A model generated the notes under the pieces. That model saw nothing but the letters and a program-made list of their open reading frames with translations, was not told the DNA's origin and did no database searches. A program made the translations under genes and the position numbers. Shown here one piece after another: positions 4,561 through 64,000 of a stretch of 64,000 bases of DNA. The stretch is taken from positions 1-64,000 of the forward strand of contig OX597826.1 in assembly GCA_951406725.2 (NCBI GenBank). The letters are read 5' to 3'. Source of the DNA: Octopus vulgaris (taxonomy: Eukaryota). How positions within the stretch are numbered: position 1 is the first letter of the stretch; the number at the start of each line of letters is the position of its first letter.

Positions 4561-5872
4561 GATACTAGAGCGCCGCCTTTAATCGATCACATCGTCCGCA
4601 GCACTTCTTTGTAAGCCTAGTATTTATTTTAACATGTTCTCTTTTGCCGAACCGCTAAAATACAGGGAGTAAAACACACCTGTATCGGTTAAAAGCATCA
4701 ACAACTACAGTCAATCGAAGATAATGACCAAACTGTCTACTCTTATCCACCAGTTCCAACACGATTTAACCAAAAAGGAGACAAATTGCTTGACTAGATT
4801 TCACTGCAAAGCCAGTAACATCTGTGAACTTCCCAAAATCTACAAAAGTTAAGCCATAAACAAAACCTGTAACAAGTTAACTTCTATAGTTATAAATATT
4901 CCACACCCGAGAGATCTCCGAATGATGCCAATTATGGCCAATCCAGGTATGTAGATACGGGAGGCATTGGGTGCTTAACACTCGCAAATCTGAATTCGCT
5001 AAAGGTGCAATAAATTGAACTTCTTTTCATTTAGAACTTAGGGATCTGCAAATGTGGGTATCTTAGAGATGCTTAAAGTGTTTGTTGTAGCTGTAATTGT
5101 CGCACACACACAAACGAATAAAAACAGTCGCTTACACACACGTACACACAGAAATAAAAACATTCACATAAAAACAAACACTGAAATGAAAATACCAATA
5201 CACACACACAAATAAAAACAGTCCCACGCACACAAACACTGAAAAAAAAATTCTCACAAAAACACTCACATACGCACAAAGACAAACACAAATGAAAATA
5301 CACAGCTACATATTCACACACTCAAACACGCGGACAAACACAGAAATGAAAACAGTTACATACCTACACATGCACAAACACAGACACACACAAATAGAAA
5401 TGAAAAATACAGTAACACATCCAAACTCTCACACACTAACATACGCACAAACACACACACACACACAAACATACGCACCCACACACAGAAATGAAAACGC
5501 AGTTACACACTCACACATAAAACCCTAACCCTAACTAGCACAAACATACAATTTATTCAGAATGTAGAGGGGTATTGGGTGCTTTGCACTCGCAGTTAGA
5601 ATATCATCTCCCTCCACGCCAGTATGAGAATTTCTTTCGTCCACTTGTGAAATTAATACATTGACGACACATGGGGAAAATATGAGCAACATCTCAAGTC
5701 ACTAAAGGTGCAATAAATTGAACTTATTTTGATTTAGTAGTTAGTGATCTCAAATGTGGGTATCTTAGAAATGGTCAAAGTGCTTGCTGCATTTGTAAGT
5801 GTCGCACACACACAAACAAATAGAAACACTCAGTCGCTCACACACTCGCGCACACAGAAAAAAAAGCACTCT

Positions 5873-5904
<32 letters not shown>

Positions 5905-6540
5905 CTGAAATGTACCACACACAATAAGTATATCAAAATAGTTTCTAGTATTTTTCCTAGCCCATAATTTATGATAATTGAAGTTCTTACAGTAAATAAA
6001 TACCTACTAAATCAGTAAATCGAACATTACATCCACGTAACTTATCGTTTCTGCAAATGAGACCTATACGTTAAGTAATAGGCATACAAAGAACAATTGC
6101 TGATGTTGATTTGCTTCACTAAAGGCGGTGCTCCACCATGGTCACAGTGAAATAACTGAAAGAGTCTACGAGCGACAAAGTCTATATTACGATAACTACA
6201 TACTTAAGGGAAATAACTACAAAGTATCTTCTACAGTTACTTCCCTTAAGTATTAAAATATAACAATAATAAAAGATTATTTAGGGAAATTAACTCTCGG
6301 AAGGGAGATAACTAGATAACATCTTCCAGAGTTACTTTCCTTACATATAATTATACTACTTTTATTTAAATTATAATACGCAGGGGAAATAACTCTCGAA
6401 AATATTATTCAGACATGACAGACTTTTACGATTTATTGGAGTTTAACTGCTCTCTCTAGTGAGTCGGATGTCCCATTATGGCCATCCCTTATATGTTTAA
6501 ATATCTAAATGTATATACATAAATCTGTCAATATATACCT

Positions 6541-6581
<41 letters not shown>

Positions 6582-8340
6582 ATATATACATATTATATAC
6601 ATATATATATACACCTATCTATATACGACGGGCTACTATCTGTTTCCGTGTACCAAATCTACTCAGAAATGTTGGTCTGTCCGAAGCTATATTGGAAGAG
6701 ACTTGCCCATGGGTCCACGTAGTTGGACTGAACCAGAATCACCGTGTTTGGAAAGGAAGCTACATACCACAGCCACTCTTACTGCTATATATATATATAT
6801 ATACGACAGTCTTCTTTTAGTTTCCGTCTCCCAAATCAACTCGGAAGGCTTTGGCCGGACTGAGACTATAGTAGAAGACATTTTCCCAACATGCCACCCA
6901 GTGGGACTGAACTCGGAAACATTTGTTAGGTAAGCAAGCTAATTCCCATTCAGACACTACTGTTTGTTAACCGGACAATTTCAAGGTGAGCCCTAATTGT
7001 TTGTATGCAAATGAGTTCATTAATGGGGTCCGGAACTTTCACGGCTGGTTCCCATAAGACAATGCAACCACCTTGGGTATAGGTGGTCTGTGCTCACACA
7101 CGCACAAACACCTACACGTCCGCACCCACGAATATAGATACATGCAAAGACGCAATCTCGTACCTATTTATGTTTTAAATATGTTGAGCTTAAAACTGCG
7201 ACATTCTGGAAACACACGTCCGCACTCATGCACATAGAGACATGCATATACGCAAACTCGTAGCTATTTATGTTTTAAACATGTTGACCTTTAAACCGTG
7301 ACATTCTGTGTCTGTTTGTGCGCGCATTTCTGTGAGAATGATTGCTTACGAAACGCAATGCGATGAGTTCAAACCAACAGCGTTGCACCTTCGGTAAGTG
7401 TATTCAACTATAGCCTTGGGCCGACCAAAGTATTCTGAGTGAAGTTGGTAGAGGGAAACTGAAAGAAGCCCGTCGTATATATGAATATCGGCGTAGCAAT
7501 GGCTATGTTGTAAGTAGTTCGCTTGCGAATCACATGGTTTGGTGTTCACTCCCACTGCCTGTCATCTTATGCAATTGTCTACTACTGTACCCCAAGGCCG
7601 ACCTAATCCTTGTGATTGGATTTAGTGGAAGGAAACTGAAAAAATACCATCGTATATATGTTTAAATGTGTGCGTGTGTGTGTGTTTGTTCGCACTCGAA
7701 GGGCACACGAGAATGCACGCATGTACTATCACACATACAGATGCAAGTTTTCTTAATAAAACGGAAAGAACTCCCGTTCCATCCCTTACAGTTTTTTTTG
7801 TTTTAGACACTACATATACGTGCGTGGGTATATACACGTATATCTGTATGTGTATGTCTGGGTAAAACAGACTTTCGTGGTTGGGTCACATTAGCCGATG
7901 CGACAACCTTGGGTATGTGTGGACTGTGCTCTCACACACGCACAAATACCCACACTTCCGCACTCATGCACATAGATACATGCAAAGCTATTTCATGTTT
8001 TAAATATGTTGACCTTAAAACCGTGACACTCTGAAGAAATTTTATGAGTGTGTGGGTCAGCCAATATGTGTGCTTTCATCTCTGTGTCTGTTTGCGCTCG
8101 CGCATGTGTGTGAGAGTGTTTGCTCACCAACCTCAATGTGCTGGGTTCAATCCAACAGCGTGGCACCTTCGGCAAGTGTATTCAACTATACCCCCGGGCC
8201 GACCAATGTATTCTGAGTAGGGTTGGTAGAGGGAAACTGAAAGAAGCCCGTCGTATATATGAATATCGTCGCAGGAATGGCTGTGGTAAGTAGTTTACCT
8301 ACGAACCACATGGTTTCAGTTTCATTCCCACTGCCTCTCA
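3870..8340 (+). repeat. Subtelomeric duplicon copy 1 (~4.5-kb mosaic of SINE pieces, Penelope fragment, ACAC/GAAATGAAA tract and foldback module)
   Basis: Collinear anchors with copy 2 at ~4.5-kb offset (4148/8641, 6481/11016, 7730/12241). Confidence 0.85.
4700..4946 (+). pseudogene. Penelope-like element RT N-terminal fragment; other copies at ~9336-9580, 44415-44660, 55562-55690 and partially 52843-52948
   Basis: Manual translation of the copies gives ...LTKKETNCLTRFDCKASNIYGLPKI(Y/H)KS...PHPRDLRMRPIMA, matching the Penelope RT YGLPKIHK...RPI signature; in-frame stop in three copies. Confidence 0.7.
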
Positions 8341-9192: not shown

Positions 9193-11083
9193 TATACTGG
9201 AGCGCCGCCTTTAATCGATCACATCGTCCGCAGCACATATTCTTTGTAAGCCTAGTATTTATTCTAACTTATTCTCTTTTGCCGAACCGCTAAAATACAG
9301 GGAGTCAAACACACCTGTATCGGTTAAAAGCATCAACAACTACAGTCAATCGAAGATAATGACCAAACTGTCTACTCTTATCCACCAGTTCCAACACGGT
9401 TTAACCAAAAAGGAGACAAATTGCTTGACTAGATTTGACTGCAAAGCCAGTAACATCTATGGACTTCCCAAAATCTACAAAAGTTAAGCCATAAACAAAA
9501 CCTGTAACAAGTTAACTTCTATAGCCATAAATATTCCACACCCGATAGATCTCCGAATGAGGCCAATTATGGCAAATCCAGGTATGTAGATACGGGGTGA
9601 TTAACACTCGCAAATCTGAAGTCGCTAAAGGTGCAATAAATCGAACTTCTTTTCATTTAGAACTTGGGGATCTGCAAATGTGGGTATCTTAGAGATGTTT
9701 AAAGTGTTTGTTGTAGCTGTAATTGTCGCATACAAACAGACGCTCACACACACGTATACACAGAAATAAAAACATTCACACAAACACAAACACTGAAATG
9801 AAAACAGTTACATACCTACCCATGCACACACACAAACATACGCACCCACACAAACATACGCACCCACACACAGAAATGAAAACGCAGTTACACATTCACA
9901 CATAAAACCCTAACCCTAACTAGCACAAACATACAATTTATTAAGAATGTAAAGGGGCATTGGGTGCTTTGCACTCGCAGTTAGAATATCATCTCCCTCC
10001 ACGCCAGTATGAGAATTTCTTTCGTCCACTTGTGAAATTAATACATTGACGACACATGGGAAAAATATGAACAACATCTCAAGTCACTAAAGGTGCAATA
10101 AATTGAACTTATTTTGATTTAGTAATTTGTGATTTCAAATGTGGGTATCTTAGAAAATGGTCAATGTGTTTGTTGTAGTTGTAAGTGTCGCACACACACA
10201 AACAAATAGAAACACTCAGTCGCTCACACAAACAAATAGAAACACTCTGTGATTTCAAATGTGGGTATCTTAGAAAATGGTCAATGTGTTTGTTGTAGTT
10301 GTAAGTGTCGCACACACACAAACAAATAGAAACACTCAGTCGCTCACACAAACAAATAGAAACACTCAGTCGCTCACACACTCGCGCACACAGAAATAAA
10401 AACACTCACACACAAACACTGAAATGAAAATACCAACACTCACATAAATAAAAACAGTCCCACACACACAAGGAGCCCCAATAGGTCTATCAAAAAAGTT
10501 TCTAGTATTTTTCCTAGCCCATAATTTATGATAATTGAAATTATTACAATAAATAAATACCTACTAAATCAGTACATCGAACATTACGTCCCCGTAACTT
10601 ATCGGTTCTGCAAAATAGACCTATACATTAAGTAATAGGCATACAAAGAACAATTCCTGGGGTTGATTTGCTTGACTAGAGGCGGTGCTCCACCATGGTC
10701 ACAGTGAAATAACTGAAAGAGTCTACGAGCGACAAAGTCTATATTACGATAACTACAAAGTATCTTCTACAGTTACTTCCCTTGAATATTATAAGTTTAC
10801 AATAAAAAGTTAATACGCGGGGCAATTAACTCTCGGAAGGGAGATAACTAGATAACATCTTCCAGAGTTACTTTCCTTACATATAATTATATTACTTTTA
10901 ATAAGTTATAATGAGCAAGAGGAAGTAACTTTCGAATATATTATTCGAACATGACAGACTTTTACGATTTATTGGAGTTTAACTGCTCTCTCTAGTGGGT
11001 CGGATGTCCCATTATGGCCATCCCATATATGTTTAAATATCTATATGTATATACATATATCTGTCAATATATACCTATGTATA

Positions 11084-11132
<49 letters not shown>

Positions 11133-12362
11133 CTATCTATATACGACGGGCTACTTTCTGTTTCCGTATACCAAATCTACTCAGAAACGTTGGTCTGTCC
11201 GAGGCTATATTGGAAGACACTTGCCTATGGGACCAAGTAGTTCGACTGAACCAGAAACACCGTGTTTGGAAGGAAGCTACATACCACAGCCACTCTTACT
11301 GCTACATATATATATATATATATACGACAGTCTTCTTTTAGTTTCCGTCTCCCAAATCCACTCAGAAGGCTTTGGCCGGCCTGAGACTATAGTAGAAGAC
11401 ATTTTCCCAACATGCCACCCAGTGGGACTGAACTCGGAAACATTTGTTAGGTAAGCAAGCTAATTCCCATTAAGACACTACTGTTTGTTAACCGCGCAAT
11501 TTCAAGGTGAGCCCTAATTGTTTGTATGCAAATGAGTTCATTAATGTGGTCCGGAACTTTCACGGCCGGTTCTTATAAGACAATGCAACCACCTTGGGTA
11601 TAGGTGGACTGTGCTCACCCACGCACAAACACTCACACGTCCGCACCCACGAATATAGATACATGCAAAGACGCAATCTCGTACCTATTTGTTTTAAATA
11701 TGTTGACCTTAAAACCGTGACATTCTGAAAACACACGTCCGCACTCATGCACATAGATACATGCATATACGCAAATTCGTAGCTATTTATGTTTTAAACA
11801 TGTTGACCTTTAAACCGTGACATTCTGTGTCTGTTTGTGCGCGCATTTCTGTGAGAATGATTGCTCACGAACCGCAATGTGCCGAGTTCAAACCAACAGT
11901 GTTGCACCTTCGGCAAGTGTATTCGACTATAGCCTAGGGCCGACCAATGTATTCTGATTGGAGTTTGTAGAGGGAAACTGAAAGAAGCCGTCGTATATAT
12001 GAATATCTACGTAGGAATGGCTATGTTGTAAGTAGTTTGCTTACGAACCACATGGTTTCGGGTTCATTCCCACTGCCTGTCATCTGCAATTGTCCACTAT
12101 TGTAGCCCAGGGCCTAGCTAATCCTTGTGATGGGATTTAGTGGAAGGAAACTGATAGAATCTCGTCGTATGTGTGTGTGTGTGTGTGTGTGTGTGTTTGT
12201 TCGCACTCGAAGGGCACACGAGAATGCACGCACGTACTATCACACATACAGATGCAAGTTTTCCTAATAAAACGGAAAGAACTCCCATTCCATCCCTTAC
12301 AGTTTCTTTTTTGTTTTAGATTCTACATATACGTGTGTTGGTATATTCACGTATATCTGTAT
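8636..12362 (+). repeat. Subtelomeric duplicon copy 2
   Basis: Collinear with 4145-7850; contains a private 120-bp tandem duplication (10128/10248). Confidence 0.85.
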
Positions 12363-12371
12363 ATATATATA

Positions 12372-13553: not shown

Positions 13554-14196
13554 CGACATATAAATACACAAACACATACATGTGTGTGTGTGTGTGTATA
13601 TAAAGGTGCAATAAATTGAACTTATTTTGATTTATTATTTAGTGATCTCAAATGTGGGTATCTTACAAATGCTCAAAGTGTTTGTTGTAGTTGTAAGTGT
13701 CGCACACACACAAACAAATAGAAACACTCAGTCGCTCACACACTCGCGCACACAGAAATAAAAACACTCACACACAAACACTGAAATGAAAATACCCACA
13801 CTCACATAAATAAAAACAGTCCCACACACACAAGGAGCCCCAATAGGTCTATCAAAAAAGTTTCTAGTATTTTTCCTAGCCCATAATCTATGATAATTGA
13901 AATTATTACAATAAATAAATACTTACTAAATCAGTACATCGAACATTACGTCCCCGTAACTTATCGGTTCTGCAAAAGAGACCTTTACATTAAGTAATAG
14001 GCATACAAAGAATAATTCCTGGGGTTGATTTGCTTCACTAAAGACGGTGCTCCACCATGTTCACAGTGAAATAACTGAAAGAGTCTAAGAGCGACAAAGT
14101 GTATATTACGATAACTACATACTTAAGGGAGATAACTACAAAGTATCTTCTACAGTTACTTCCCTTGAATATTATAACTTAACAATAAAAAAATAA

Positions 14197-14646
14197 CGTA
14201 AGGGGGATCAGCCATCTGAATGTGGCTTGGGACAGGGCGGGGTGGTGGGGGTGTTACTGATGCTTTTAGCTCCGGGCGATCATCAACGTCACCAGAAGGA
14301 CTGACACCATATAGGTGTCCTCGTTTGCTTGTAAAAGGAGGTTATCCTTCCCCGAAGATACAGATGCTACATACGGACCGGTTTCGAGGTCATTGCCTCT
14401 TATCAACGTATGGTAAGCACCGTTCCTCGATGAAGGATTCCCTCTACAGGCAAAATATATAAGACTTTTCACAGTAACTACAGTCACTGATGTAGAAAAG
14501 CCGTCTGAAAACAATAATAAATCTCTGAACGAGATATAAACAGTAACTGCTCGACAACGTAAGGGGGATCAGCCATCTGAATGTGGCTAGGGACAGGGCG
14601 GGGTGGTGGGGGTGTTACTGATGCTTTTAGCCCCAGGCGATCATCA
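14197..14646 (-). mobile_element. Non-coding retrozyme / Penelope-pLTR-like element A (361-bp monomer plus 92-bp terminal direct repeat)
   Basis: Direct repeat 14195-14286 / 14556-14647 with 3 mismatches; 13-bp TSD AATAAAAAAATAA at 14184-14196 and 14647-14659; absent at the equivalent site of duplicon copies 1 and 2; contains a hammerhead. Confidence 0.82.
14363..14421 (-). ncRNA. Minimal type-I hammerhead ribozyme (U3-A8 core variant)
   Basis: Minus strand reads GGUGC-UUAC-CAUACG UUGAUAA GAGG-CAAUGA-CCUC GAAA CCGG UC^ CGUAUG-UA-GCAUC: perfect stems I and II, palindromic ACCGGU in place of stem III, GUC cleavage triplet. Confidence 0.85.
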
Positions 14647-14931
14647 AATAAAAAAATAATATGCAGGGAAATTAACTCTCGGAAGGGAGATAACTAGATA
14701 ACATCTTCCAGAGTTACTTTCCTTACATATAATTATTTTACTTTTATTAAATTATAATGTGCAAGAGGAAGTAACTCTCAAATATATTATTCAGACATGA
14801 CATAGACTTTTACGATTTTTTGGAGTTTAACTGCTCTCTCTAGTGAGTCGGATGTCCCATTATGGCCATCCCTTATATGTTTAAATATCTATATGTATAT
14901 ACATATATCTGTCAATATATACATATGTGTG

Positions 14932-16603: not shown

Positions 16604-17499
16604 CCAGCCCCCATCCCTGCTTTTCAATGCTAAACCCGATATAAAACAGTCATCAACACTATAAATAAACCTGTTCAATCTCTACTCTCCTCATCACCCC
16701 AAATCCCAACCCCTAGTTCAAACTTTGATCTCTTACTTGACTATTCTCTCTAAAAACCCTTCACAAATCCTCAAGCTGACCCTAATATAGACTAAACTCT
16801 GAAAACCAATCCTAACAGCAAACCCACACCAAAATAAGAAAGACCACTTACCTTTGGCCATTTGGGATCTATAATACAAGGCATGATATGCAAACAACAA
16901 GCAAAATATCAACCAACATTTGAAAGTCAAGTTTTATCTATGTGTCGAATCATGAAATACACTTGTTTAATAAATACAGTTGTCCTTACATTTACACAGT
17001 ACATTGCTTCCACAAGTCATCAAACTAATCATTCTCATGCGAAATCAATTGTTTTTATTTATAAATAGAAACAAATTAATTATTGAAATTAATATAAGAA
17101 ATACAATTAACGTGTATGTGTGTCATCATCATTTAACATTCGTTTTTCATGTTGTCATGGGTTGGACTATTTCACACTATCTGAGATGAATTACTACACG
17201 TACCTCTAATGTCTGTTTTCACATGGTTTCTATGTCTGAGAAAAGTTTTGGTAACACTGACACTAGTAAAATTAAAAAGTAAATTTCAAGGATGAGTGGA
17301 CTGCTAGTAGTGAGAGAGGTGGCTTCATCCTAACCTGTAGTATGATAGAGAGACAGGCAGAGGTGTGTCGCTGTAGAGAAAGTACATGGCTACCCTGCAT
17401 ATATGTATGTATACAGGTAGACATCGATTAGAGCGCTTTCTCATTGCTAATATGTTAACATATGCCTGATGTGTGCTTTAAAAATAAAGTGCTTGCACT

Positions 17500-20400
17500 G
17501 GCACTAATTTCTTCAGATGATGAAACTCACGGAGAGGATCATAGCCCAACTAATTAGGAAAAGACTTAATCTAGATGAGATGCAATTTGGTTTTGTATCA
17601 GGAAGAAACACCAGTCATGATATATTTCTGGTAAGAAACCCCAGGAGAAGTACCTAACCAAGTATAAACCTATGTACTTGACTTTTGTTGGTATCATAAT
17701 CATTCAGGTAATAACAGATAAATATAAAACAGGCAGACCCTAGCAACTCCTCTATGCTGATTACAGGATTACAACTAAACACACATATATTACAATTTAT
17801 TACATTACATTCAATTCGCCATATATTATTCATTTTATTATCCATCATCTTTCCCTTCACATTTCAGGTATACTGAAGACCCTTTACTCATTGCTTCAGA
17901 CTGCGTAAAATATTGGTGAAAGCAAACAGTTGTCAGACTTATTTATGACAAAAAGCGAGTCAGTATGACCAACGTACCCTGTCCTGCACCTGATTGTGCC
18001 ATGAGTTGGCCTGTAAACAATCCATGGGAGAGAGTACTGACAAGCCTCATCGATCATCTGCAACAATGACACAGAATGTATGCACCTGCCACCTACAACA
18101 AATACAACCCCCTCCTCCAACTACACTACCATTCCCAGCCACTGAGGAAAAACGTTGTCGCCTGAGGAAGTAGCTGCTACAATACTACAGCTCCAGCACA
18201 TTCAACGTCTGCAACCATCGGCAATTCTCTGACCAACCGATTCGCTTAATGCTAAACCAGTCGCCCACACCAGTCCTGGTTCATTGGCAAGAGGAATTAA
18301 AAGCAGGTCTTGACCGGAATGTTCCACTTGGAGTTATAAAGCCTATTCCCATTGGTACATCTGTCACTTGGTGACAGACAATGGTGGTATGTCCTAACAG
18401 GTCTGGAAAACCATCTTAAAGGAGCATCGAATGGTGCACAGGCACTTAACACTGCCCTATCAGCTATGAGCTGACATTGTACCTTCTTCCACAATTGGGG
18501 AGAATCACTGCCATTGCATTTCCCCATGACAACTGCCGAGCCAAAGTCGGTATTGAGACAATAAAGGGCCTCGTTACAGACAACACTGACACCAATGGCT
18601 TCCTTAACACTGACAGTTTCCAGTGAACAATGCTACAATAAAGAAATACACCTGACTGGGACACACACTTGTCCCCAGCCATGTGCATCTTTGGCAGCCC
18701 TATACAATACTTTATTCCCATCCATCCCGGCAAGTACAAGCTACATTCCACATGGCATGAAACTATGACTTATTGAAAAGAAGACCTGCGTAAACACAAC
18801 ATGAGTGCTATTGAACGGTTGTCAAAACACACATGCTCACTTCTTTCGAACTATATCCTAATCCAGAGCCAAGTTTGACCCAATCCTACAAATGGGGGGA
18901 AAACTGGTGCCATTTAGATGTACGTCATTTCGATCTGTACATGTTGAGAGTGGATGGATCAGGCCAAGTCACACTGTGCAACAAAATTCCTCTGGAAGTA
19001 TCTACTGCTTCTTCCCCATGGCCCACTACTCATGGTGTCTGAACCACCTGCATTCTTCACGCCAACACCAGTGATGAGACTACCTTCTCAACCGACTTTA
19101 ACAGCACCTCATGCAGCTGCAACACCAATGCCCACTTCCCGATTCCAAAATTACCATGACCAGAAATGCATCTCACCGCCTACCCACAGAGCCACGCCAA
19201 CTTACCCCACCTTTACCACAAGTGGTCATACCCCAACACCCCTTGAAACCCCTGCTTTCCAAAAGTGACCCTTGCCTGATACAGTTTATCCTCCATCCAG
19301 CAATTGTCCTGTTTGTCGCTCTGCCAGACTCGCAAAGACTGACACAAAAGCCTGATGCACAACTGACACGTTGCTCCTTGATCGTCACACCGTCAATATT
19401 GATTAAGGGTCTCTTGCACTAATTATTATTTTCGTTAATCATTTAATACATATTATTAGTTTTCTTTGCTTCTCTCAAAGGAATTGGGGAGGGCATAGAG
19501 GATGACAACTGAACACTCATATATTATCATTTATTACATTACATTCAATTAGCCATACATTATTAGTTTCATTATCAAAATATTTTCCTTCACGTTTCAG
19601 GTATACCGAGAACCTTTTTTTTCATTGCTTCAATCAGTGTACATAAAGTGTTTGTGAAAGCAAAGAGTTTTCACACTTATTTACTAATGAGCTGCTTCTT
19701 ATAGCTAAATCACTACCAGAACTAGAGAACAAATTTTGCGTACGGAAGCAAGGTCTAGAATTGAAAGGTCACAGAATTAACCTACCCAACCCTAACCCAA
19801 AGTCTTAGTAAGTAGGAAACCAGATAAATCGTAAAGCCCTTCAGGTACATGGCCATCCTCAATATGAAGGAAACAGGTAGGTAGATGTACTCTGTATAAC
19901 ACATAATAGGTGTAGCAATATGAGAGGAAGGTAAACTGGGAAAATATTTTTTGTATGTGGAAGGTGCATAATGTACAGTAAAAACTAAAAATGCACAGAA
20001 AATGGGCTTCATCAAATGCCAGAGGAGTACGTTAGAGATCGTTGAGTAACAAAGTCAGTAGCAGAAGTGGATGAACCAAGAGTGTGGCTGCAAGAATAAA
20101 AATAGGCTGAGCAAATTCAGAGAGCTCCTTCCTCTGTTTGGTAACTAAGGGTCTCTCCTTCAGAGTGAAAGCCAGATTTATTATACCTGTGCAGACAACT
20201 ATGCTACATGGCAGGAGAAGTAGACATAAGGCATTGGACAAGGTGGTAATGCATGATCTTTGACTGTTGGAACTTATAAAGGCAATGACTAATGACTGAC
20301 ACCTTTCATGACATGCTGTGCCTTAGAAGACAATATATTGTAATTAATTTCCCATCAATTAATTTTTTTCACAACCCCTGCCCTCAACACTCATGGAGTG

Positions 20401-20547
20401 CTTGATGTTAAGAAGGGCATCCAGCCATAGAAACAATGACAAATCAAGACTGGAGTCTGCTGCAGTCCCTCAGCTTACCAGCCCTGATGAAACTGTCCAA
20501 CTCAAGCCAGCATAGATAATGGACATTAAATGATGATGATGATGATG
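17500..20547 (+). mobile_element. Degenerate RTE-clade LINE remnant (17500-17685 and 19684-20547) split by a Gypsy insertion
   Basis: MKLTERIIAQLIRKRLNLDEMQFGFVSGRNT..IFLVR before the LTR; degenerate match to the 58.1-kb RTE ORF and 3' UTR with (TGA)n tail after it. Confidence 0.7.
17686..19683 (+). mobile_element. Internally deleted Gypsy-type LTR retrotransposon relic
   Basis: Diverged LTR pair ~17686-17950 and ~19497-19683; purine tract GGAATTGGGGAGGG before the 3' LTR; RT N-terminal relic PVLVHWQEELKAGLDRNVPLGVIKPIP and integrase C-terminal relic [16 protein letters not shown]...NTPD..THLSPAMCIFG. Confidence 0.75.
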
Positions 20548-21281
20548 ACAATTCTTTTTGTAAAACTTTTGCATTTTATGCTGAACATCTAGTTTAAAGT
20601 TAATTTTATAGATTGAATTTTCATTTCCAGTGAAATCAATTTTAATATTTCAAATTCAAAAATATTTAACAAAATATAATGAGAAACTGAAGCAAGTACT
20701 ACTTCTATATTTGTAAAAACAAAAAGAAACAAATAGAGGAAAATGAGCAAAATTGTGCAAAAGTGAACTAAGAAACAGAATACTGTGTAAGGCAAGAGAC
20801 AACTGTATTTTATGAAAGTACCATATTGCATAAACACAAAAAAAAGAAACTATTGCAGAGGGAATTAAACTGAAACAGATATCAACATGACACACACAAC
20901 CCATGCTAGTATGGATAAAATGATTAGATATTTCTGTCGAGAGAAAATTCAATGACAATCTTATGCAACCAACAATAACCTCAAACTTATCAGATTATTG
21001 TAGATGAGCAACAACTCAAGAAAACCTGTCAAAATACTATGTTCTTACAATGAATTAATTGCAAGTATTTAAGTATGTAGACAACATAATTTCATGTTTT
21101 ATATGCATCAATACATGTGTAAAAATAAGTCTCATACCTACGTTCATTTTTCCATCCTAGCATGAGTTTGAAAAATATAAGATTTGATAGTTGGGTAACG
21201 TTGCCGTAGCTAATGCTAATTTTCTACTAAAGGTTTTCTTTTTTCTTTCAAAGTGCAGTTCTAACAAATGATACATTTGTA

Positions 21282-29639: not shown

Positions 29640-30135
29640 ATATATAAAAATACAAAAGGGGACAAGAACGCAGAACATCCAGAAGACTATACAAAAAGCA
29701 CGGACGGGTCATTCGAAGCCTTTAATCTTCAGTCAAGAACCGGATCATCGGCTGATTAATCTTGGGATTGCTCTAATCTGGCCATCCCCAAGGAAAAGAA
29801 TAGCTAAGAGCATTAGATTCATTGGAAAAAAAGCTTCGAATGTATAGGACACAAGGACGGAAAAACGGACGATGTTACACGAATATAAATACAAAAATAA
29901 TACGAAAAAATAATAATAATAATATCAGGACATCACAACAGGCGTCTTTCGACTAGAGACGAATTGAATTCAGCAGGCGTGTAAGGAATTGAGCCTTACG
30001 GCAGAGAAAGGAAATGTTGATGTTTCAGCGACCTCGGCCAGACACAGAAAGGCCAGTAGTCCGCCAAGCGGACACGTGAGAAGATAAGAGAGAGGAAAAG
30101 GGGAACAAAGGAATTAAGAAGGGGGAGAAGAGAGA
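29640..30135. repeat. Unclassified interspersed-repeat-like segment abutting the satellite
   Basis: More GC-rich block after (TA)n with internal inverted motif CATTCGAAGC / GCTTCGAATG; no ORF. Confidence 0.3.
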
Positions 30136-33100
30136 GAATAGAAAAGTGTGAACTGAGGAAGATTTGACTAATATTTCTACAAGTCAAGCAGCTATTTAGA
30201 GGATCTGACATTGTTCCATTAGAATAAAAAAAGTGTGATCTGAGGAAGATTTGACTGCTATTTCTAGCAGGTGAAGCAAATATTTAGAGTATCTGACATT
30301 AGTCCATTAGAATAGAAAACTCTGATCCCAGGAGGATTTGACTGCTATTTCTAGCAAGTCAAGCAAATATTTAGAGGTTCTGACATTGGTTCATTAGAAT
30401 AAAAAAAGTGGGATCTGAGGAAGATTTGATTGCTATTTCTAGCAGTTAAGCAATGATTTAATTGATCGGACATTGTTCCATTAGAATAGAAGAGTGTGAT
30501 CTGAAGGAGATTTGACTGCTATTTCTAGAACGTCAAGCAACTATTTAGAGGATCTAACATTGGTACCTTAGAATAGAAAAGTGTGATCTGAGGAAGATTT
30601 GACTGCTATTTCTAGCAAGTCAAGCAACTATTTTGAGGATCTGACATTAGTCCATTAGAATAGAAAAGCGTGAGCTGAGGAAGATTTGACTGCAATTTCT
30701 CGCAAGTCAAGCAACTATTTACAGGATCTGAAATTGGTCCACTAGTATAGAAAAGTGTGATCTGAAGGAGATTTGTCTGCTATTTCTAGCAAGTCAAGCA
30801 ACTATTTAGAGAATCTGACATTGTGCCTTTAGAATAGAAAAGTGTGATCTGAGGAAGGTTTGATTGCTATTTCTGGCAAATCAAGCAACTTATTCAGAGG
30901 ATAATAACATTGGTCAAATTAGTATAGAAAAGTATGATCTGATGGAGATGTGACTGCTATTTCTAGCAAGTCAAGCATCTATTATTAGGATTTGACATTG
31001 TTCCAATAGAATAGTAAAGTGTGAGCTGAGGAAGATTTCACTGCTACTTCTAGCAAGTAAATCAATTAGCATGAGCTGAGGAAGATTTGACTGTTATTTT
31101 TAGCAAGTCAAGAAACTTTAGAGGTTCTGACATTGGTCCATGAGAATAGAAAAGTGTGATCTGATTAAGATTTGACTGCTATTTCTATCAAGTCAAGAAA
31201 CTATTTAGAGAATTTGACATGTTCCGTTAGAATAGAAAAGTGTGATCTGATTAAGATTTGACAGTTATTTCTAGCAAGTCAAGCAAGTATTTAGAGGATG
31301 TGACATTGGTCAATTAGAATAGAAAAATGTGATCTGAGGAAGTATAGGCTGCTATTTCTATCAAGTTAAGCAAATATTTAGAGGATCTAACATTGGTCTA
31401 TTAGAATGGAAAAGTGTAATCTCAGGAAGATTTGTCTGCTCTTTCTAGCAAGTCAAGCACTATTAAGAGCATCTGACATTGGTCCATTAGAAGAGAAAAG
31501 TGTCATCTGAGGGAGATTTGACTGTTATTTCTACCAAGTCAAGCAACTATTTAGAAGATCTGAGATTGGTCCTTTAGAGCATCTGACATTGGTCTATTAA
31601 ATAGAAAAGTGTGATCTGAGGAAGATTTGTCTCCTCTTTCTAGCAAGTCAAGCAACTATTAAGATCATTTGACATTTGTCCATTAGAATAGAAAAGTTTG
31701 ATCTGAGGAAGATTTTATAGATATTTCTAGCAAGTCAAGGAACTATTTAGAGGATCTGACATTGTTCCATTAGAAAAGAAACGAGTGATCTGAGGAACAT
31801 TTGATGGCTATTTCTAGCAAATCAAGCTTTTATTTAGACGATCTGACATTCTTTCATTAGAATAGAAAAGTGTTGTCTGAGGTAGATTTGACTGCTACAT
31901 CTTGCAAAGAAAGCACATATTTAGAGGATCTGACATTTGTCGATTAGAATAGAAAATTGTGATCTGAGGGAGATTTGACAGCTATTTCTATCAAGTCTAG
32001 CAATTATTTTGAGGTCTTGACATTGTTCCATTAGAATAGAAACGTGTAATCTGAGTAAGATTTGATTGCTATTTCTAGCAAGTCAAGCTTTTATTTAGAC
32101 GATCTGACATTGTTCCATTAGAATAGAAAAGTATGATCTAGGGAAGACTTGACTGCTATTTCTAGCAAGTGAAGCAACTATTTAGAGGATCTGATATTGT
32201 TCTATAAGAATAGAAAAGTGTGATAATACGGAGATTTGACTAATATTTCTAGCAAGTCAAGGAACTATTTAGAGGATCTGACATTAGTCATTAGAATAGA
32301 AAAGCGTGAGCTGAGGAAGATTTGACTGTTATTTTTAGCAAGTTAAGAAACTATTTAGAGGCTCTGATATTGGTCCATGAGAATAGAAAAGTGTGATCTG
32401 ATTAAGATTTGACTGCTATTTCTAGCAAGTCAAGCAACTATTTAGAGGATTTGACATTGTTCCATTGGAATAGAAAAGTGTGATCTGAGAAAGATTTGAC
32501 TGTTATTTCTAGCAAATCAAGCAAGTATTTAGAGGATCTGATATTGGTTCATTAGAATAGAAAAATGTGATCTTAAGAAGGTTGACTTCTATTTTTTGCA
32601 AATCAAGCAACTATTTAGAGGTTGTGACAATGGCCCATAAGAATAGAAAAGTTTGATCCAAAGGAAGTTTTGACTGCTCTTTCTAGCAAGTGAAGGAACT
32701 ATTTAGAGAATCTGTCATTGGTCTTTTAGAATAGAAAAGTGTGATCTGAGGAAGATTTGTCTCCTCTTTCTAGAAAGTCAAGCAACTATTAAGAGCATGT
32801 GACATTGGTCATTAGAATAGAAATGTGTGATCTGAGGGAGATTTGACTGCTATTTCTAGCAAGTCAAGCTTTTATTTAGATGATCTGACATTGTTCCATT
32901 AGAATAGAAAAGTGTGATCTCAGGAAGATTTGACAGCTATATCTACCAAGGAAAGCAACTATTTAGATGATCTGACATTGGTCAATTAGTATAGAAAATT
33001 GTGATCTGAGGGAGATTCGACTGCTAATTCTAGCATGTCAAGCAACTATTTAGAGATCTTGACATTGTTCCATTAGAATAGAAGAGTGTAATCTGAGGAA

Positions 33101-34720
33101 GATTTGATTTCTACTTCTAGCAAGTGAAGCAAGGATTTAGAGGATCTGATGTTGTTCCATTAGAATAGAAAATTGTGATAATACGGAGATTTGACTACTA
33201 TTTCTATCAAGTCAAAGATCTATTTAGAGGATCTGACATTGGTCCATTAGAATAGAAAAGCGTGAGCTGAGGAAGATTTGCCTGTTATTTTTAGCAAGTT
33301 AAGGAACTATTTAGAGGCTCTGATATTGGTCCATGAGAATAGAAAAGTGTGATCTGATTATGATTTGACTACTATTTCTAGCAAGTCAAGCAACTATTTA
33401 GAGGATTTGACATTGTTCCATTGGAATAGAAAAGTGTGATCTGAGGAAGATTTGTCTCCTCTTTCTAGCAACTCAAGCAACTTTTAAGATCATCTGACAT
33501 TTGTTGATTAGAATGGAAAAGTTTGATCTGAGGAAGATTTTATAGATATATCTAGCAAGTCAAGGAACTATTTAGAGGATCTGACATTGTTCCATTAGAA
33601 AAGAAACGAGTGATCTGAGGAACATTTGATGGCTATTTCTAGCAAGTCAAGCTTTTATTTAGACGATCTGACATTCTTCCATTAGAGTAGAAAAGTGTGA
33701 TCTGAGGAAGGTTTCACTGCTATTTTTAGCAAGTCAAGCAACTATTTAGAGTAACTGGCATTGATCCATTAATACAGAAAAGTGTGATCTAAGGGAGATT
33801 TGACTGTTATTTCTAGCAAGTGAAGCTAATATTTAGAGGATTTGATATTGTTCCATTAAAATAGAAAAGTCTGATATAAGGAAGGTTTGACTCCTATTTC
33901 TGTCAAGTCTAGCAACTATTTAGAGGATCTGACATTGTTCAATTAGAATAGAAAAGTGTGATCTGATGAAGATTTGACTACTATTTCTAGCAAGTCTAGT
34001 AACTATTTAGAGGATCTGACATTGGTCCATTAGAGTAGAAAAGAGTGATATGATGAAGATTTGACAGCTATTTCTAGCAAGTCAAGCTTTTATTTAGACG
34101 ATCTGACATTCTCTCATTAGAATAGAAAAGTGTGGTCTGAGGAAGATTTGACTGCTACATCTTGCAAGGAAAGCAAATATTTAGAGGATCTGACATTTGT
34201 CGATTAGAATAGAAAATTGTGATCTGAAGGAGATTTGACTGCTATTTCTATCAAGTCTAGCAACTATTTAGATATCTTGACATTGTTCCATTAGAATAGA
34301 AAAGAGTAAGATTTGATTGCTATTTCTAGCAAGTCAAGCATCTATTATTAGGATCTGACATTGTTCTATTAAAATAGAAAAGTGTGATCTAAGGAAGACT
34401 TGACTGTTATTTCTAGCAAGTCAAGCTTTTATTTAGACGATCTGACATTGTTCCATTAGAATAAAAAAGTGTAATCTGATGAAGATTTGATCGCCATTTC
34501 TTGCAAGTGAAGCAACTATTTAGAGGATCTGATATTGGTCCATTAGAATAGAAAAGTGTGATCTTATAAAGGTTGACTGCTATTTCTTGCAAATCAAGCA
34601 ACTATTTAGAGGTCATGACAATGGTCCATAAGAATAGAAAAGTTTGATCGAAAGGAAATTTTGACTGCTCTTTCTAGCAAGTGATGGAACTATTTAGAGA
34701 ATCTGTCATTGGTCTTTTAG

Positions 34721-35118
34721 TTAGTTAGTTAGTTAATTTTTTGGCTCAAATAGCAAAAAGCAAGGCCATGTAGGGGGACAAGGAGTTATGTACAGGGTGG
34801 TGTTCATGTAAAGAGTTCAGGCCACTTGAGGTCAAGGGAGACTTTGAACCGAGCAGTCATCGGCATCTTCACCATCTCATCTGGCAGCTTATTCCACTGA
34901 TCCGCAACCCGGACGGAGAAAGCCCCTCTCCTTCAATTGAGATGAAATCGTCGCAGATAGAGCTTTTCGGAATGACCCCACGGCCGATGCTCTGGAGCAG
35001 GAGTGAAGAACAGCTCTTTCGAGAGGTTACACTTTCCGCTTATGATGTTGTGAGCAAGAATGAGATCTCCACGGCATTGTCATTTTTCTAGAGAATAAAG
35101 GTCGAGCGTCTTCAGCCT
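34721..35118 (-). mobile_element. Short 5'-truncated CR1 copy inserted in the satellite (same family as 12513-13518)
   Basis: Reverse complement of ~13119-13518 including the (TAAC)n tail; TTTAG at both junctions. Confidence 0.92.
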
Positions 35119-36540
35119 TTAGAATAAAAAAGTGTGATCTGAGGAAGATTTGTCTCCTCTTTCTAGAAATTCAAACAACTATTAAGAGCATGTGACATTG
35201 GTCATTAGAATAGAAATGTGTGATCTGAGGGAGATTTGACTGCTATTTCTAGCAAGTCAAGGAACTATTTAGAGGATCTCACATTGGTCTATTAGAATAG
35301 AAAAATGTCATCTAAAGGAAGTTTTGACTGCTATTTCTAGCAAAGCAAGCAACTATTTAGAGGATCTGACATTGGTCTATTAGAATAGAAAAGTGTGATC
35401 TGAGGAAGATTTGTCTCCTCTTTCTAGCAAGTCAAGCAACTATTAAGAGCATCTGACATTGGTCCATTAGAATAGAAAAGTGTGATATAAGGAAGATTTT
35501 CCTGTCAATTATAGCAAGTCAAGCAACTATTTAGAAGATCTTATATTGGTGCATTAGAATAGAAAAGTCTGATCTGAGGAAGATTTGATTGCTATTTCTA
35601 GCAACTCTAGCAACTATTTAGAATGTCTGACATTGTTCCATTAGAATAGAAGCGAGTGATGTGAGGAACATTTGATTGCTATTTCTCGCAATTGCAGCTT
35701 TAATTTAGAGGATCTGACATTGGTCTATTTGAATAGAAATGTGTGATCTGAGGGATATTTGACTGCTATTTCTTGCCAGACAACCAACTATTTAGAGGAT
35801 CTGACATTGGGCGACTAGTATAGAAAATTGTGATCTGAGGGAGATTTGACTGCTATTTCTAGCAAGTCTAGCAACTGTTTAGATGATCTGATATTGGTCC
35901 ATTAGAATAGAAAAGTGTGATCTGAAGGAGATTTGTCTGCTATTTTTAGAAAGTCAAGCAGCTATTTAGAGGATCTGACATTGTTCCATTAGGATAGTAA
36001 AGTGATCTGAGGAAGGTTTGATTGCTATTTCTAGCAAGTGAAGCAACTTATTTTGAGGATCTGACATTGGTCCATTAGTATAGAAACGTTTGATCTGATG
36101 GAGATTTGTCTGTTATTTTTTGCAAGTCAAGAAACTATTTAGAGGTTCTGACATTGTTCCATTAGAATCGAAGAATGTAATCTGAGGAGGATGTGATTTC
36201 TATTTCTAGCCAGTCAAGCAACTATTTAGAGGATCTGATATTGTTCTATTAGAATAAAAAAGTGTGATAATACTGAGATTTGACTACTATTACTAGTAAG
36301 TCAAGGATCTATTTAGAGGAGCTGACATTGGTCCATTAGAATAGAAAAACATGAGCTGGGGAAGATTTGACTGTTATTTTTAGGAAGTCAAGAAACTATT
36401 TAGAGGTTCTGACATCAGTCCATGAGAATAGAAAAGTGTGCTCTGATTAAGATTTGACTGCTATTTCTAGCAAGTCAAGCAACTATTTAGAGGATTTGAC
36501 ATTGTTCCATTAGAGTAGAAAAGTGTGATCAGAGGAACAT

Positions 36541-36961
36541 TTACTCTTTACTCTTTTACTCTTTTACTTGTTTCAGTCATTTGACTGCGGCCATGCTGGA
36601 GCACCGCCTTTAGTCGAGGAAATCGACCCCGGGACTTATTCTTTGTAAGCCCAGTACTTATTCTATCGGTCTCTTTTTGCCGAACTGCTAAGTGACGGGG
36701 ACGTAAGCACACCAGCATCGGTTGTCAAGCAATGCTAGGGGTACAAACACAGACACACAAACACACACACATACATACATATATATATATACACATATAT
36801 ACGACAGGCTTCTTTCAGTTTCCGTCTACCAAATCCACTCACAAGGCATTGGTCGGCCCGGGGCTATAGCAGAAGACACTTGCCCAAGATGCCACGCAGT
36901 GGGACTGAACCCAGAACCATGTAGTTGGTTAGCAAGCTACTTACCACACAGCCACTCCTGC
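36541..36961 (-). mobile_element. Full-length tRNA-derived SINE inserted in the satellite
   Basis: Complete head, body, microsatellite and tail ending in (AAAAGAGT)n; the satellite monomer resumes in register. Confidence 0.92.
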
Positions 36962-38005
36962 TTTGATAGCTATTTCTAGCAAGTCAAGCTTTTATTTAGA
37001 TTCCATTAGAATAGAAAACTGTGATCTCAGGATGTTTTGACTGCTATTTCTAGCAAGTCAAGCAACTATTTAGTGGGTCTGACATTGGTCTATTGGAATA
37101 GAAAAGAGTGATCTGAAAAAGATTTGTTTCCTCTCTCTAGCAAGTCAAGCAACTATTAAGAGCTCGTGACATTGGTCGATTAGAACAGAAAAGTCTGATC
37201 TGAGGGAGAATTGACTGCTATTTCTAGCAAGTGAAGCAATTATTTTGCAGATCTGACATTGTTCCATTAGAGTAGAAAAGTGTGATCTAAGGAAGACTTG
37301 ACTGCTATTTCTTGTAAGTTAAGAAACTATTTAGTGGCTCTGGCATTGGTCCATAAGAATAGAAAAGTGTGATCTAATTAAGATATGACTGCTATTTCTA
37401 GCAAGTCAAGCAACTATTTAGAGGATTTAACATTGTTCCATTTGAATAGAAGTGTGATCTGAGGAAGATTTGACTGTTATTTCTAGCAAGTCAAGCTTCT
37501 ATTTAGACAATCTGACATTGGTCAATTAGAATAGAAAAATGTGATCTGAGGAAGATTTGTCTGCTCTTTCGAGCAAGTCAAGCACTATTAAGAGCATCTG
37601 ACATTTGTCCATTAGAATAGAAAAGTGTGATCTGAGGGAGATTTGACTGTTATTTCTACCAAGTTAAGCAACTATTTAAAGGATGTGACATTGGTCCATT
37701 AGAATAGAAAAGTGTGATCTGAGGAAGATTTTACAGTTATTTCTAGCAAGTCAAACAACTATTTAGAGGATGTGACATTGGTCCATTAGAATAGAAATGT
37801 GTGATAATACGGAGATTTGACTATTTCTAGCAAGTGAAGCTACTATTTAGAGGGTCTAAAATTGTTCCATTAGAATAGAAAAGCGCAATATGAGGAAGAT
37901 TTGACTGCTATATCTTGCAAGTCAAGTAATTATCTAGAAGATCTGACATTAGTCCATTAGTATAGAAAAGTGTGATCTGAGGAAGATTTGAATGCTATTT
38001 CTAGC

Positions 38006-38419
38006 AATCTGGTGACCCCATAGGTATATCAAAAAAGCTTCTAGTATCTTTCCTAGCCCATAATTTATTATTATAATTGAAGTTCTGATAATAAATTAAT
38101 ACCTACTAAATCAGTAGCCTGAGCAGAATCTGGTGACCCCATAGGTATATCAAAACAGTTTCTAGTATCTTTCTTAGCCCATAATTTATTATTATAATTG
38201 AAGTTCTGATAATAAATAAATACCTAGTAAATCATTAGCCTGAGCAGAATCTGATGCTCCCAAAGGTATATCTAAAAAGCTTCTAGTATCTTTCCTAGAT
38301 CATAATTTATCATTATAATTGAAGTTCTGATAATAAATACCTACTAAATCAGTATCCTGAGCAGAATCTGTTGCCCCCATAGTTATATCCCAAAAGTTTC
38401 TAGTATCTTTCCTAGCCCA
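38006..38419. repeat. ~121-bp minisatellite, ~3.4 copies
   Basis: Unit starts AATCTG at 38006, 38127, 38248 and 38365. Confidence 0.92.
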
Positions 38420-56776: not shown

Positions 56777-57167
56777 AAATGAAAATACCCACACTCACAT
56801 AAATAAAAATAGTCCCACACACACAAGGATCCCCAATAGGTATATCAAAAAAGTTTCTAGTATTTTTCCTAGCCCATAATTTATGATAATTGAAGTTCTT
56901 ACAATAAATAAATACCTACTAAATCAGTATATCGAACATTACGTCCCCGTAACTTATCGGTTCTGCAAAAGAGACCTATACATTAAGTAATAGGCATACA
57001 AAGAATAATTCCTGGGGTTGATTTGCTTGACTAAAGGCGGTGCTCCACTATGGTCACAGTGAAATAACAGAAAGAGTCTAACAGCGACAAAGTGTATATT
57101 ACGATAACTACAAAGTATCTTCTACAGTTACTTCACTTGAATATTATAATTTAACAATAATAAAATT

Positions 57168-57603
57168 ATAATTAAATCTCAGAATGAGATTGAAACAGTA
57201 ATCGCTCGATAATGTAAAGTATAGAAGCCATCTTATCATGGCTAACCACATTGGGGAGGGGGTGTTACTGTAGCTTTATAGCCCCAAGAGATCTTCGTCT
57301 CTAGCTGGCCTTAGACACAATATCAGTGTCCTTGGAGTATTTGCAAAGGGAGGCCATCCCTTCCTCGCAAGCCTGAGTGATACGCTCGAACTAGTTTCGG
57401 GATTGTTGTCCCTCGTCAACGGGCGGTAACCACCAGGTAGCGATGAAAGTGAAGGCTGCTTTGCAAACATATATAAGTTTTTCTAATGGCGTCTGCCACT
57501 GATGTCGAAAAACGAACAGTAAGCATAATTAAATCTCAGAATGAGATTGAAACAGTAATCGCTCGATAATGTAAAGTATAGAAGCCATCTTATCATGGCT
57601 AAC
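57168..57603 (-). mobile_element. Non-coding retrozyme / Penelope-pLTR-like element B (357-bp monomer plus 79-bp identical terminal direct repeat)
   Basis: Direct repeat 57168-57246 / 57525-57603; motif-for-motif homology to element A with a different start point; contains a hammerhead. Confidence 0.8.
57372..57437 (-). ncRNA. Minimal type-I hammerhead ribozyme (U3.G8 core variant)
   Basis: Minus strand reads CCUGGUGG-UUAC-CGCCCG UUGACGA GGGA-CAACAA-UCCC GAAA CUAG UU^ CGAGCG-UA-UCACUCAGG; palindromic ACUAGU; one C-A mismatch in stem I; GUU triplet. Confidence 0.78.
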
Positions 57604-63000: not shown

Positions 63001-64000
63001 TCACGTTTCAGGTATGCCGAGGACCTTTGTTTTCATTGCTTCAATCTGTGTACATAAAGTGTTTGTGAAAGCAAAGAGTTTTCACACTTATTTACTAATG
63101 AGCTTCTTCTTATAGCTAAATCACTACCAGAACTAGAATAAATTTTGCGTACGGAAGCAAGGTCTAGAATTGAAAGGTCACAGAATTAACCTACCCAACC
63201 CTAACCCAAAGTCTTAGTAAGTAGGAAACCAGATAAATCGTAAAGCCCTTCAGGTACATGGCCATCCTCAATATGAAGGAAACAGGTAGGTAGATGTACT
63301 CTGTATAACACATAATAGGTGTAGCAATATGAGAGGAAGGTAAACTGGGAAAATATTTTTTGTATGTGGAAGGTGCATAATGTACAGTAAAAACTAAAAA
63401 TGCACAGAAAATGGGCTTCATCAAATGCCAGAGGAGTACGTTAGAGATCGTTGAGCAACAAAGTCAGTAGCAGAAGTGGATGAACCAAGAGTGTAGATGC
63501 AAGAATAAAAATAGGCTGAGCAAATTCAGAGAGCTCCTTCCTCTGTTTGGTAACTAAGGGTCTCTCCTTCAGAGTGAAAGCCAGATTTATTATACCTGTG
63601 CAGACAACTATGCTACATGGCAGGAGAAGTAAACATAAGAAGGCATTGGACAAGGTGGTAATGCATGATCTTTGACTGTTGAAACTTATAAAGGCAATGA
63701 CTAATGACCGACACCTTTCATGACATGCCGTGCCTTAGAAGACAATATTATTGTAATTAATTTTCCATCAATTAATTTTTTTCACAACCCCTGCCCACAA
63801 CACTGATGGAGTGCTTCATATTAAGAAGAACATCCAGCCATAGAAACAATGACAAATCAGACTGGAGTCTGCTGCAGACCCTCAGCTTACCAGCCCTGAT
63901 GAAACTGTCCAACACATGCCAGCATGGATAATGGACATTAAGTGATGATGATGATGATGATGATGACAATTCTTTTTGTAAAACTTTTGCGTTTTATGCT
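60009..64000 (+). repeat. Segmental duplication copy 2 including the RTE and Gypsy relics; runs off the window end
   Basis: Collinear near-identity with 16605-20582 with small indels. Confidence 0.95.

Follow-up and report, generated by a model that had tools for sequence, protein, structure and literature searches.

The genome of Octopus vulgaris harbours a family of dispersed, non-coding non-LTR retrozymes whose copies, on the explanation that probably accounts best for all the observations, are likely made by a reverse transcriptase (RT)-endonuclease supplied in trans by a Penelope element (PLE) and likely templated by a ligated monomer circle. One copy, of subfamily F1, lies on the minus strand of the window, the 64,000-nt stretch of contig OX597826.1 that was analysed, and a second, of subfamily F2, lies further along it (Table 1). 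Taken alone, the element is a member of an already described class, the non-LTR retrozymes (PMC7229834; Li, Clavereau and Pollet 2026, bioRxiv 10.64898/2026.07.22.740005). The family also carries an inserted LINE, and a LINE that parasitises a retrozyme has apparently not been described before.

Table 1. Positions of the retrozyme copies, their parts and the inserted LINE. Plain numbers are window positions; a dot marks a feature given without strand.
Feature	Position	Strand	Remark
Retrozyme copy, subfamily F1	14197..14646	-	1.25 x 361-nt unit, single hammerhead
Left target-site duplication	14184..14196	.	13 bp; final 2 bases also match element 3' end
Right target-site duplication	14647..14659	.	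13 bp
'Body' 3' end of insertion	14195..14197	-	lies at unit position 181; a fixed end of the family, as is the tail end; putative RT start site
'Tail' segment	14510..14555	-	spans unit 182-227 and lies inside this copy; the family's other fixed 3' end falls where it stops
Equivalent of LINE target site	14415..14431	-	empty in this copy; inferred by alignment
Type I hammerhead	14362..14422	-	U3-A8 core; 6+6 bp in helix I, 4 bp in helix II, a palindrome as helix III; cleavage predicted between 14376 and 14375
Retrozyme copy, subfamily F2	57168..57603	-	357-nt unit + 79 nt, ending near tail end
F2 hammerhead	57375..57435	-	U3-G8 core with a GUU triplet; cleavage predicted between 57389 and 57388
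L1-group LINE interrupting a retrozyme copy	L271:1199-6471 (G000:C1:68120698-68125970)		5.27 kb
Further LINE loci	L176/L177, L194, L170, L146, L273-L292

As characterised in the part of PMC7229834 drawn on here, metazoan non-LTR retrozymes are non-coding units of 150-450 bp with a type I hammerhead, a GC content below 50% and no LTR, PBS or PPT. The octopus family comprises at least four subfamilies with units of 357-362 nt and 45-46% GC, in which the longest ATG-started frames on the ribozyme strand span 30-64 aa. Each unit contains a type I hammerhead, whose self-cleavage is predicted from fold and covariation. Like the retrozymes of that study, the family shows long target duplications, a self-paired circular fold and PLEs in the same genome, and the mussel units are of similar length (350-390 bp). 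Unlike them, which form tandem dimers to 62-mers (PMC7229834), the octopus copies are mostly dispersed and partial, with two ribozymes in 9 of 123 insertions; their cores include the variants U3-A8 and U3-G8, and their circular RNA is a predicted one. The main text of PMC7229834, as distinct from a supplement with further invertebrate retrozymes that lay outside the search, contains no cephalopod retrozyme, and for the giant squid 235 Rfam hammerhead matches are noted without analysis in the part covered of PMC6962438. A literature search that reached few subscription papers found no report of a cephalopod retrozyme family or of PLE insertion signatures in retrozymes.

The copy in the window has a period of 361, and positions 14195-14286 recur at 14556-14647 with 89 of 92 bases identical, which bears out the 361-bp monomer and 92-bp terminal redundancy of a preliminary description made from the letters of the window alone. 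That description had also read a 13-bp target-site duplication, absence from paralogous duplicons and the lack of a credible open reading frame, and all three hold: the direct repeat flanks the copy, the paralogous host blocks near 6270 and 10805 each contain the target site once and no element, and once the unit is circularised no frame starting with ATG is longer than 30 aa on the ribozyme strand or 80 aa on the opposite one. Having a single ribozyme, the copy is unable to release a circle itself; it is a single-arm product and likely a dead end. Its duplication makes it atypical, since only 4 of 25 single-arm insertions outside microsatellites have one of at least 10 bp. The junction 14376/14375 and the terminal repeat would also be present in linear transcripts of the locus, so the divergent-primer RT-PCR suggested earlier would not be diagnostic of a circle. 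Elsewhere the window contains a short-period GC-rich tandem array at the contig start (1-1437), a diverged satellite array of about 87 bp (30135-38400), local duplications of 4 kb (96%; 16606-20582 and 60009-64000) and 2 kb (87%; 5744-7855 and 10249-12368), and LINE and mariner-like ORF fragments, whose families were labelled by reading translations.

The minus strand of the window copy folds as a type I hammerhead, as had been proposed, and the fold is accompanied by covariation. In 11 of the 18 pairs both partners vary among 14 related copies; slid controls give 0-1 such pairs, and none of 500 shuffles reaches the observed count, a figure that is not a probability, the 14 rows being kin. An extended helix I covaries at 22 of its 35 predicted pairs over 11 sequences. 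The minimal form known from PLEs, which the preliminary description had named for metazoan retrozymes and Penelope pLTRs, does not fit; the helices are of canonical size and the U3-A8 core is a variant. By subfamily, the 3-8 core pair is C-G in F3 (the canonical pair), U-A in F1 and F4, and U-G in F2. Helix III is short and self-complementary, being a palindrome in F1, F2, F4 and most of the F3 copies shown. The palindrome varies from one subfamily to the next, in keeping with hammerheads that act as dimers (PMC4209133). Rfam left the hammerhead of the window copy unscored. Its microRNA matches over the window were rejected as microsatellite hairpins, leaving the hammerhead of the F2 copy as the one meaningful match.

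The diverged relative noticed earlier at 57168-57603 is indeed a second copy, with a period of 357, a repeat identical at 79 of 79 positions and 67% identity to the window's F1 copy. It occupies the same host position in a fourth paralogous block, where about 980 bp of host sequence are replaced and there is no target duplication. Two subfamilies have thus entered a single AT-rich site of a host repeat rich in hairpins, each by its own insertion (14184-14196 and 57155-57167), and no other insertion among the 123 tabulated lies at this host site. This copy contains no credible ORF, and an infinite ORF was looked for on the 357-nt F2 circle and is absent. Rfam matches its hammerhead to HH9 with 31.2 bits and an E-value of 6e-6, short of the gathering score of 52, and the fold is no better than that of shuffles (z -0.27); the F2 subfamily is very homogeneous despite its U3-G8 core and GUU triplet.

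The retrozyme sequence is present in 20 sequencing runs, none of them recorded as RNA, and most of the F2 copy is covered by assembled contigs from four runs guessed to be RNA, such contigs being unable to show ends or circles. Contig depth, which is too weak a measure here, drops across the predicted cut more than genomic coverage does. In the contigs of the four runs A is replaced by G at nine places within 57235-57319. Of the 113-139 genomic segments compared at these places, 0-3 carry the G; T precedes the site on its 5' side at six of the nine, and G never does. By comparison with genomic copies rather than with DNA of the same animal, the pattern resembles A-to-I editing, with the edited strand being the one opposite the ribozyme.

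Genome-wide, exact patterns recovered at least 1,342 hammerhead cores and 956 tail motifs, with 0 control matches for either, from copies without an ORF scattered over many chromosomes. The preliminary description had named the lack of other dispersed copies as a reason to abandon its reading, and had proposed a tabulation of copy ends and target duplications; that tabulation yielded two fixed 3' ends, and duplications mainly in inverted copies. First-look candidates numbered 1,733 with an F1 query, 1,774 with F2 and about 2,600 each with F3 and F4, of which 40 were scored per query. The insertion table draws on 145 F1, F2 and F4 loci, with F3 and pattern loci left out, and contains 123 distinct insertions, a sample that favours long, well-matching copies. 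In the table 184 of 196 outer 3' ends belong to the body or the tail class, about 180 or 225-237 nt after the predicted cut, and the 5' ends of the arms are scattered. Inverted insertions make up 73 of the 123, with the 3' ends facing outward: 63 combine a body and a tail end, one has two tails, one has two bodies and eight involve another end. The excess of body-tail pairs has p 2e-10 against an expectation of one third tail-tail, the F1 and F2 queries being biased against body-body pairs and not against tail-tail pairs. A (TA)4 motif is touched by 119 of the 196 3' ends, and duplications of 12-19 bp flank 18 of 20 inverted insertions outside microsatellites (at least 10 bp in 11 of 300 controls). 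Arms extend up to 944 nt (2.6 units). Two predicted cut sites fall in one arm in the nine insertions mentioned above, and one insertion has three; head-to-tail copies with two or more ribozymes are therefore found at the level of the family.

The partly tandem structure, and the missing Rfam score for the window copy, would also suit a satellite that DNA recombination has spread and whose hammerhead-like fold arose by chance. That reading is refuted by dispersal over many chromosomes, empty sites, target duplications and fixed 3' ends, together with the 1,342 cores against none in the control and the covariation of the fold.

Two fixed 3' ends, a preference for (TA)n and frequent inversion constitute the Penelope 'tail' signature, from which it follows that this non-LTR retrozyme is, with high probability, moved by a PLE. 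Of the features by which a PLE-mobilised element is recognised, two fixed 3' ends, inverted arms and AT-rich or (TA)n targets were found in the family. The same insertion features are described for PLEs (PMC8557442), one of which has two internal RT start sites (PMC11167929). In the portions of PMC11167929, PMC8557442 and PMC4209133 consulted, PLEs likewise stop at two 3' points separated by 30-40 bp, mostly carry the tail on one side only, form inverted arms that are truncated at the 5' end, insert into (TA)n and have a hammerhead close to the 3' end; a U3-A8 core is reported from Schistosoma PLEs. Unlike PLEs, the octopus element has no ORF, a tail of 45-57 nt and canonical ribozyme helix sizes. 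Animal retrozymes have been proposed to be non-autonomous PLE derivatives, and dispersed monomers occur in Xenopus (Li, Clavereau and Pollet 2026, bioRxiv 10.64898/2026.07.22.740005). The preprint argues from co-occurrence and pLTR similarity in 35 genomes, without a mollusc and, in the text covered, without an analysis of insertion ends; in the octopus it is the manner of insertion that points to PLEs, and the sampled PLE families gave no pLTR homology.

The unit contains no RT-GIY-YIG ORF of the kind that marks an autonomous PLE. A PLE match of any sort was found at 5 of 199 loci, one of which abuts an RT fragment in sense: 150 loci chosen on the 3' part or the tail pattern gave three matches, none abutting in sense, and 49 more gave two, one abutting. 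The expectation of a dispersed, non-autonomous element without an attached Penelope ORF was thus sound. The genome is rich in RT-GIY-YIG elements, including intact 781-aa ORFs, and the family with these ORFs stops at two 3' ends, inserts into (TA)n and carries a hammerhead-like core of the U3-A8 type together with a helix III that is palindromic. This young family (L091:406-4087) has a further ORF upstream, keeps its 781-aa RT-GIY-YIG frame intact in many copies, and contains internal repeats in its long 3' UTR. The partner search scored 150 of 6,136 GIY-YIG candidates, and among the families sampled none resembles the unit in sequence or has anything in common with it beyond the hammerhead-like core; the tail of the 781-aa family is no more like the unit than shuffles are (p 0.56-0.87). 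Mobilisation in trans is therefore inferred from the signature. The earlier proposal that a Penelope RT ran past one full round agrees with the PLE-type insertion signatures and with arms longer than one unit. A unit-like piece 1.3 kb behind a PLE ORF (L096) was rejected as a partner, being a separate insertion in (TA)n.

Every insertion signature is common to the family and PLEs, and the copies might on that ground be taken for truncated pseudo-LTRs of an ordinary autonomous Penelope element, a reading to which one further locus lends itself: at L222:886-1737 an internal PLE RT fragment precedes an F3 copy and is joined in sense to its 5' end, with (TA)n bounding the two together. It is very improbable and largely refuted. 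Long copies wrap into the unit again and not into an ORF (81 of 123 exceed one unit, in a sample enriched for long copies), no upstream ORF outside the unit is shared by the loci chosen on the 3' part or the tail pattern, and PLE matches are as few as given above. The PLE family represented at L222 has its own, different 3' end and no pLTR homology to the unit; the fusion could be a template switch or an insertion with deletion.

What the presumed PLE enzyme copies can be approached through the 5' ends. Only 2 of the 66 arms that reach the predicted cut stop there, and the stop rate is flat with no pile-up, which shows that cleaved linear monomers are not the main template; the RNA template is continuous across the ribozyme site. 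A circle is slightly more likely than not to be the main template. It is favoured by arms of up to 2.6 units without long arrays, by well-folding circularised units (z -3.9 and -2.9), by the precedent of mussel retrozymes of 350-390 nt, which are mostly circular, and by the likeness of passes within one F1 insertion, which differ by 2.0% against 5.8% between insertions (lower in 43 of 46 pairs). It is opposed by the lack of such a signal in F2 (3.0% within and 3.4% between, 34 of 58; uninformative), by the weaker-looking F2 core, by the dispensability of cleavage in the anole and by two chimeric loci.

The same four points bear, with others, on an alternative that is less probable than the circle but still substantial, namely the same PLE-driven element copied from an uncleaved linear multimer or by RT template jumping, with the hammerhead a passenger or rarely active and a circle unneeded. 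Insertion of an anole PLE in vitro did not require cleavage and was unaffected by hammerhead mutants (PMC11167929). Of nine Xenopus dimers, eight did not cleave. At L275 and L284 a 3' piece of the LINE runs into a retrozyme whose ends are of the PLE type, and the retrozyme half expected upstream is absent; such chimeras suggest that uncleaved linear templates are used at least sometimes, and the missing pile-up at the cut fits a linear template equally. Copying of a linear template, however, can only shorten its source, yet arms of 1-2.6 units persist in four subfamilies of the same unit length. Nor was a long array seen: the first 100 listed cores include seven same-strand pairs 357-360 bp apart and no triplet. 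The covariation of the ribozyme fold and the mostly circular mussel retrozymes likewise speak against a linear template.

With the circle as template, the cycle would begin with transcription of loci that carry two ribozymes (9 of 123), whose hammerheads would pair via the palindromic helix III and excise a monomer for a host ligase to close. The insertions themselves record copying from one of two fixed internal points, through the cut and past a full unit. The PLE protein would cut AT-rich or (TA)n DNA with a stagger of about 13-14 bp, and each nicked strand could prime at a different start point, giving inverted copies with one body and one tail end.

The LINE that interrupts retrozyme copies encodes an ORF1 with a zinc knuckle and an ORF2 with the domains APE-RT-zf-RVT, an order that fits the L1 group. 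At G000:C1:68.12 Mb it has its own 17-bp duplication inside the retrozyme copy, and two further two-ended loci have 14-bp duplications; the letters differ by locus and are alike on both sides, marking independent insertions. The 3' end pattern of the LINE alone gives 60 matches (control 1), followed by a retrozyme-type junction in 49 and not in 11. Among 20 loci fetched across these classes, all 17 with the junction run into retrozymes of several subfamilies, and the other three are relatives of 77-87% identity without a retrozyme. Where the core is recognised, it begins 27-29 nt after the LINE 3' end and its cut lies 57-62 nt after it. The LINE thus has 3' ends at one site of a multicopy target and, at the three two-ended loci, its own duplication, as a target-specific LINE does, and its specificity for the retrozyme is very probable. 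Part of the 49 ends may have arisen secondarily, by copying of a chimera between LINE and retrozyme. A pair of cores on one strand, separated by 5.65 kb, was considered as a full PLE and rejected, as the two flank the LINE. At L278 the LINE end is followed by a far more distant hammerhead-like repeat, possibly a further retrozyme subfamily.

The physical joining of LINE and unit at a fixed site could also be read as the mark of a SINE-like passenger of this L1-group LINE, or of another. Such an origin is hardly credible: the LINE interrupts existing copies with locus-specific duplications of 14-17 bp, its 60 exact ends are few beside the more than 1,300 cores, and the retrozyme has neither poly(A) nor a LINE-like 3' end and shows the two-start, inverted structure of PLEs.

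Among named relatives of the LINE protein the best comes from Argonauta (62%), and among solved ones it is human L1 ORF2p; none of the 120 listed matches is a named Tx1 protein. Tx1L inserts into the Tx1D transposon. With Tx1-clade APE LINEs the octopus element has in common the ORF1 zinc knuckle, the APE-RT-zf-RVT ORF2 and a fixed site in a multicopy sequence, and transposons are among the known targets of sequence-specific LINEs in the part of PMC4640811 covered. Its target differs in being a ribozyme-bearing retrozyme, and its group is assigned by domain order. In the same search, with its few subscription papers, no report of a Tx1-type LINE targeting retrozymes or hammerheads was found. 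As a hypothesis, the LINE inserted at its fixed family site may use the ribozyme to form the 3' end of its RNA. A three-tier chain can tentatively be drawn, with a doubtful claim to hold in all its parts: a Penelope enzyme would make a staggered cut and copy a hammerhead circular RNA from both of the nicked strands, with a different internal start site for each, and a LINE that has evolved specificity for this retrozyme would borrow the hammerhead to trim its read-through RNA about 60 nt past the LINE end, leaving a 3' tail that matches the target.

How animal retrozymes move is an open question, and a role for PLEs has so far been argued from co-occurrence and pLTR similarity. The octopus copies bear the PLE insertion signature itself, and with intact 781-aa PLE ORFs present in this genome the idea can be tested directly in vitro. 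The near-strict pairing of body and tail ends constrains models of PLE integration. If true, a LINE landing beside the ribozyme of a retrozyme would be a new kind of target for sequence-specific LINEs, and the retrozyme and its LINE form a small, programmable-looking study system.
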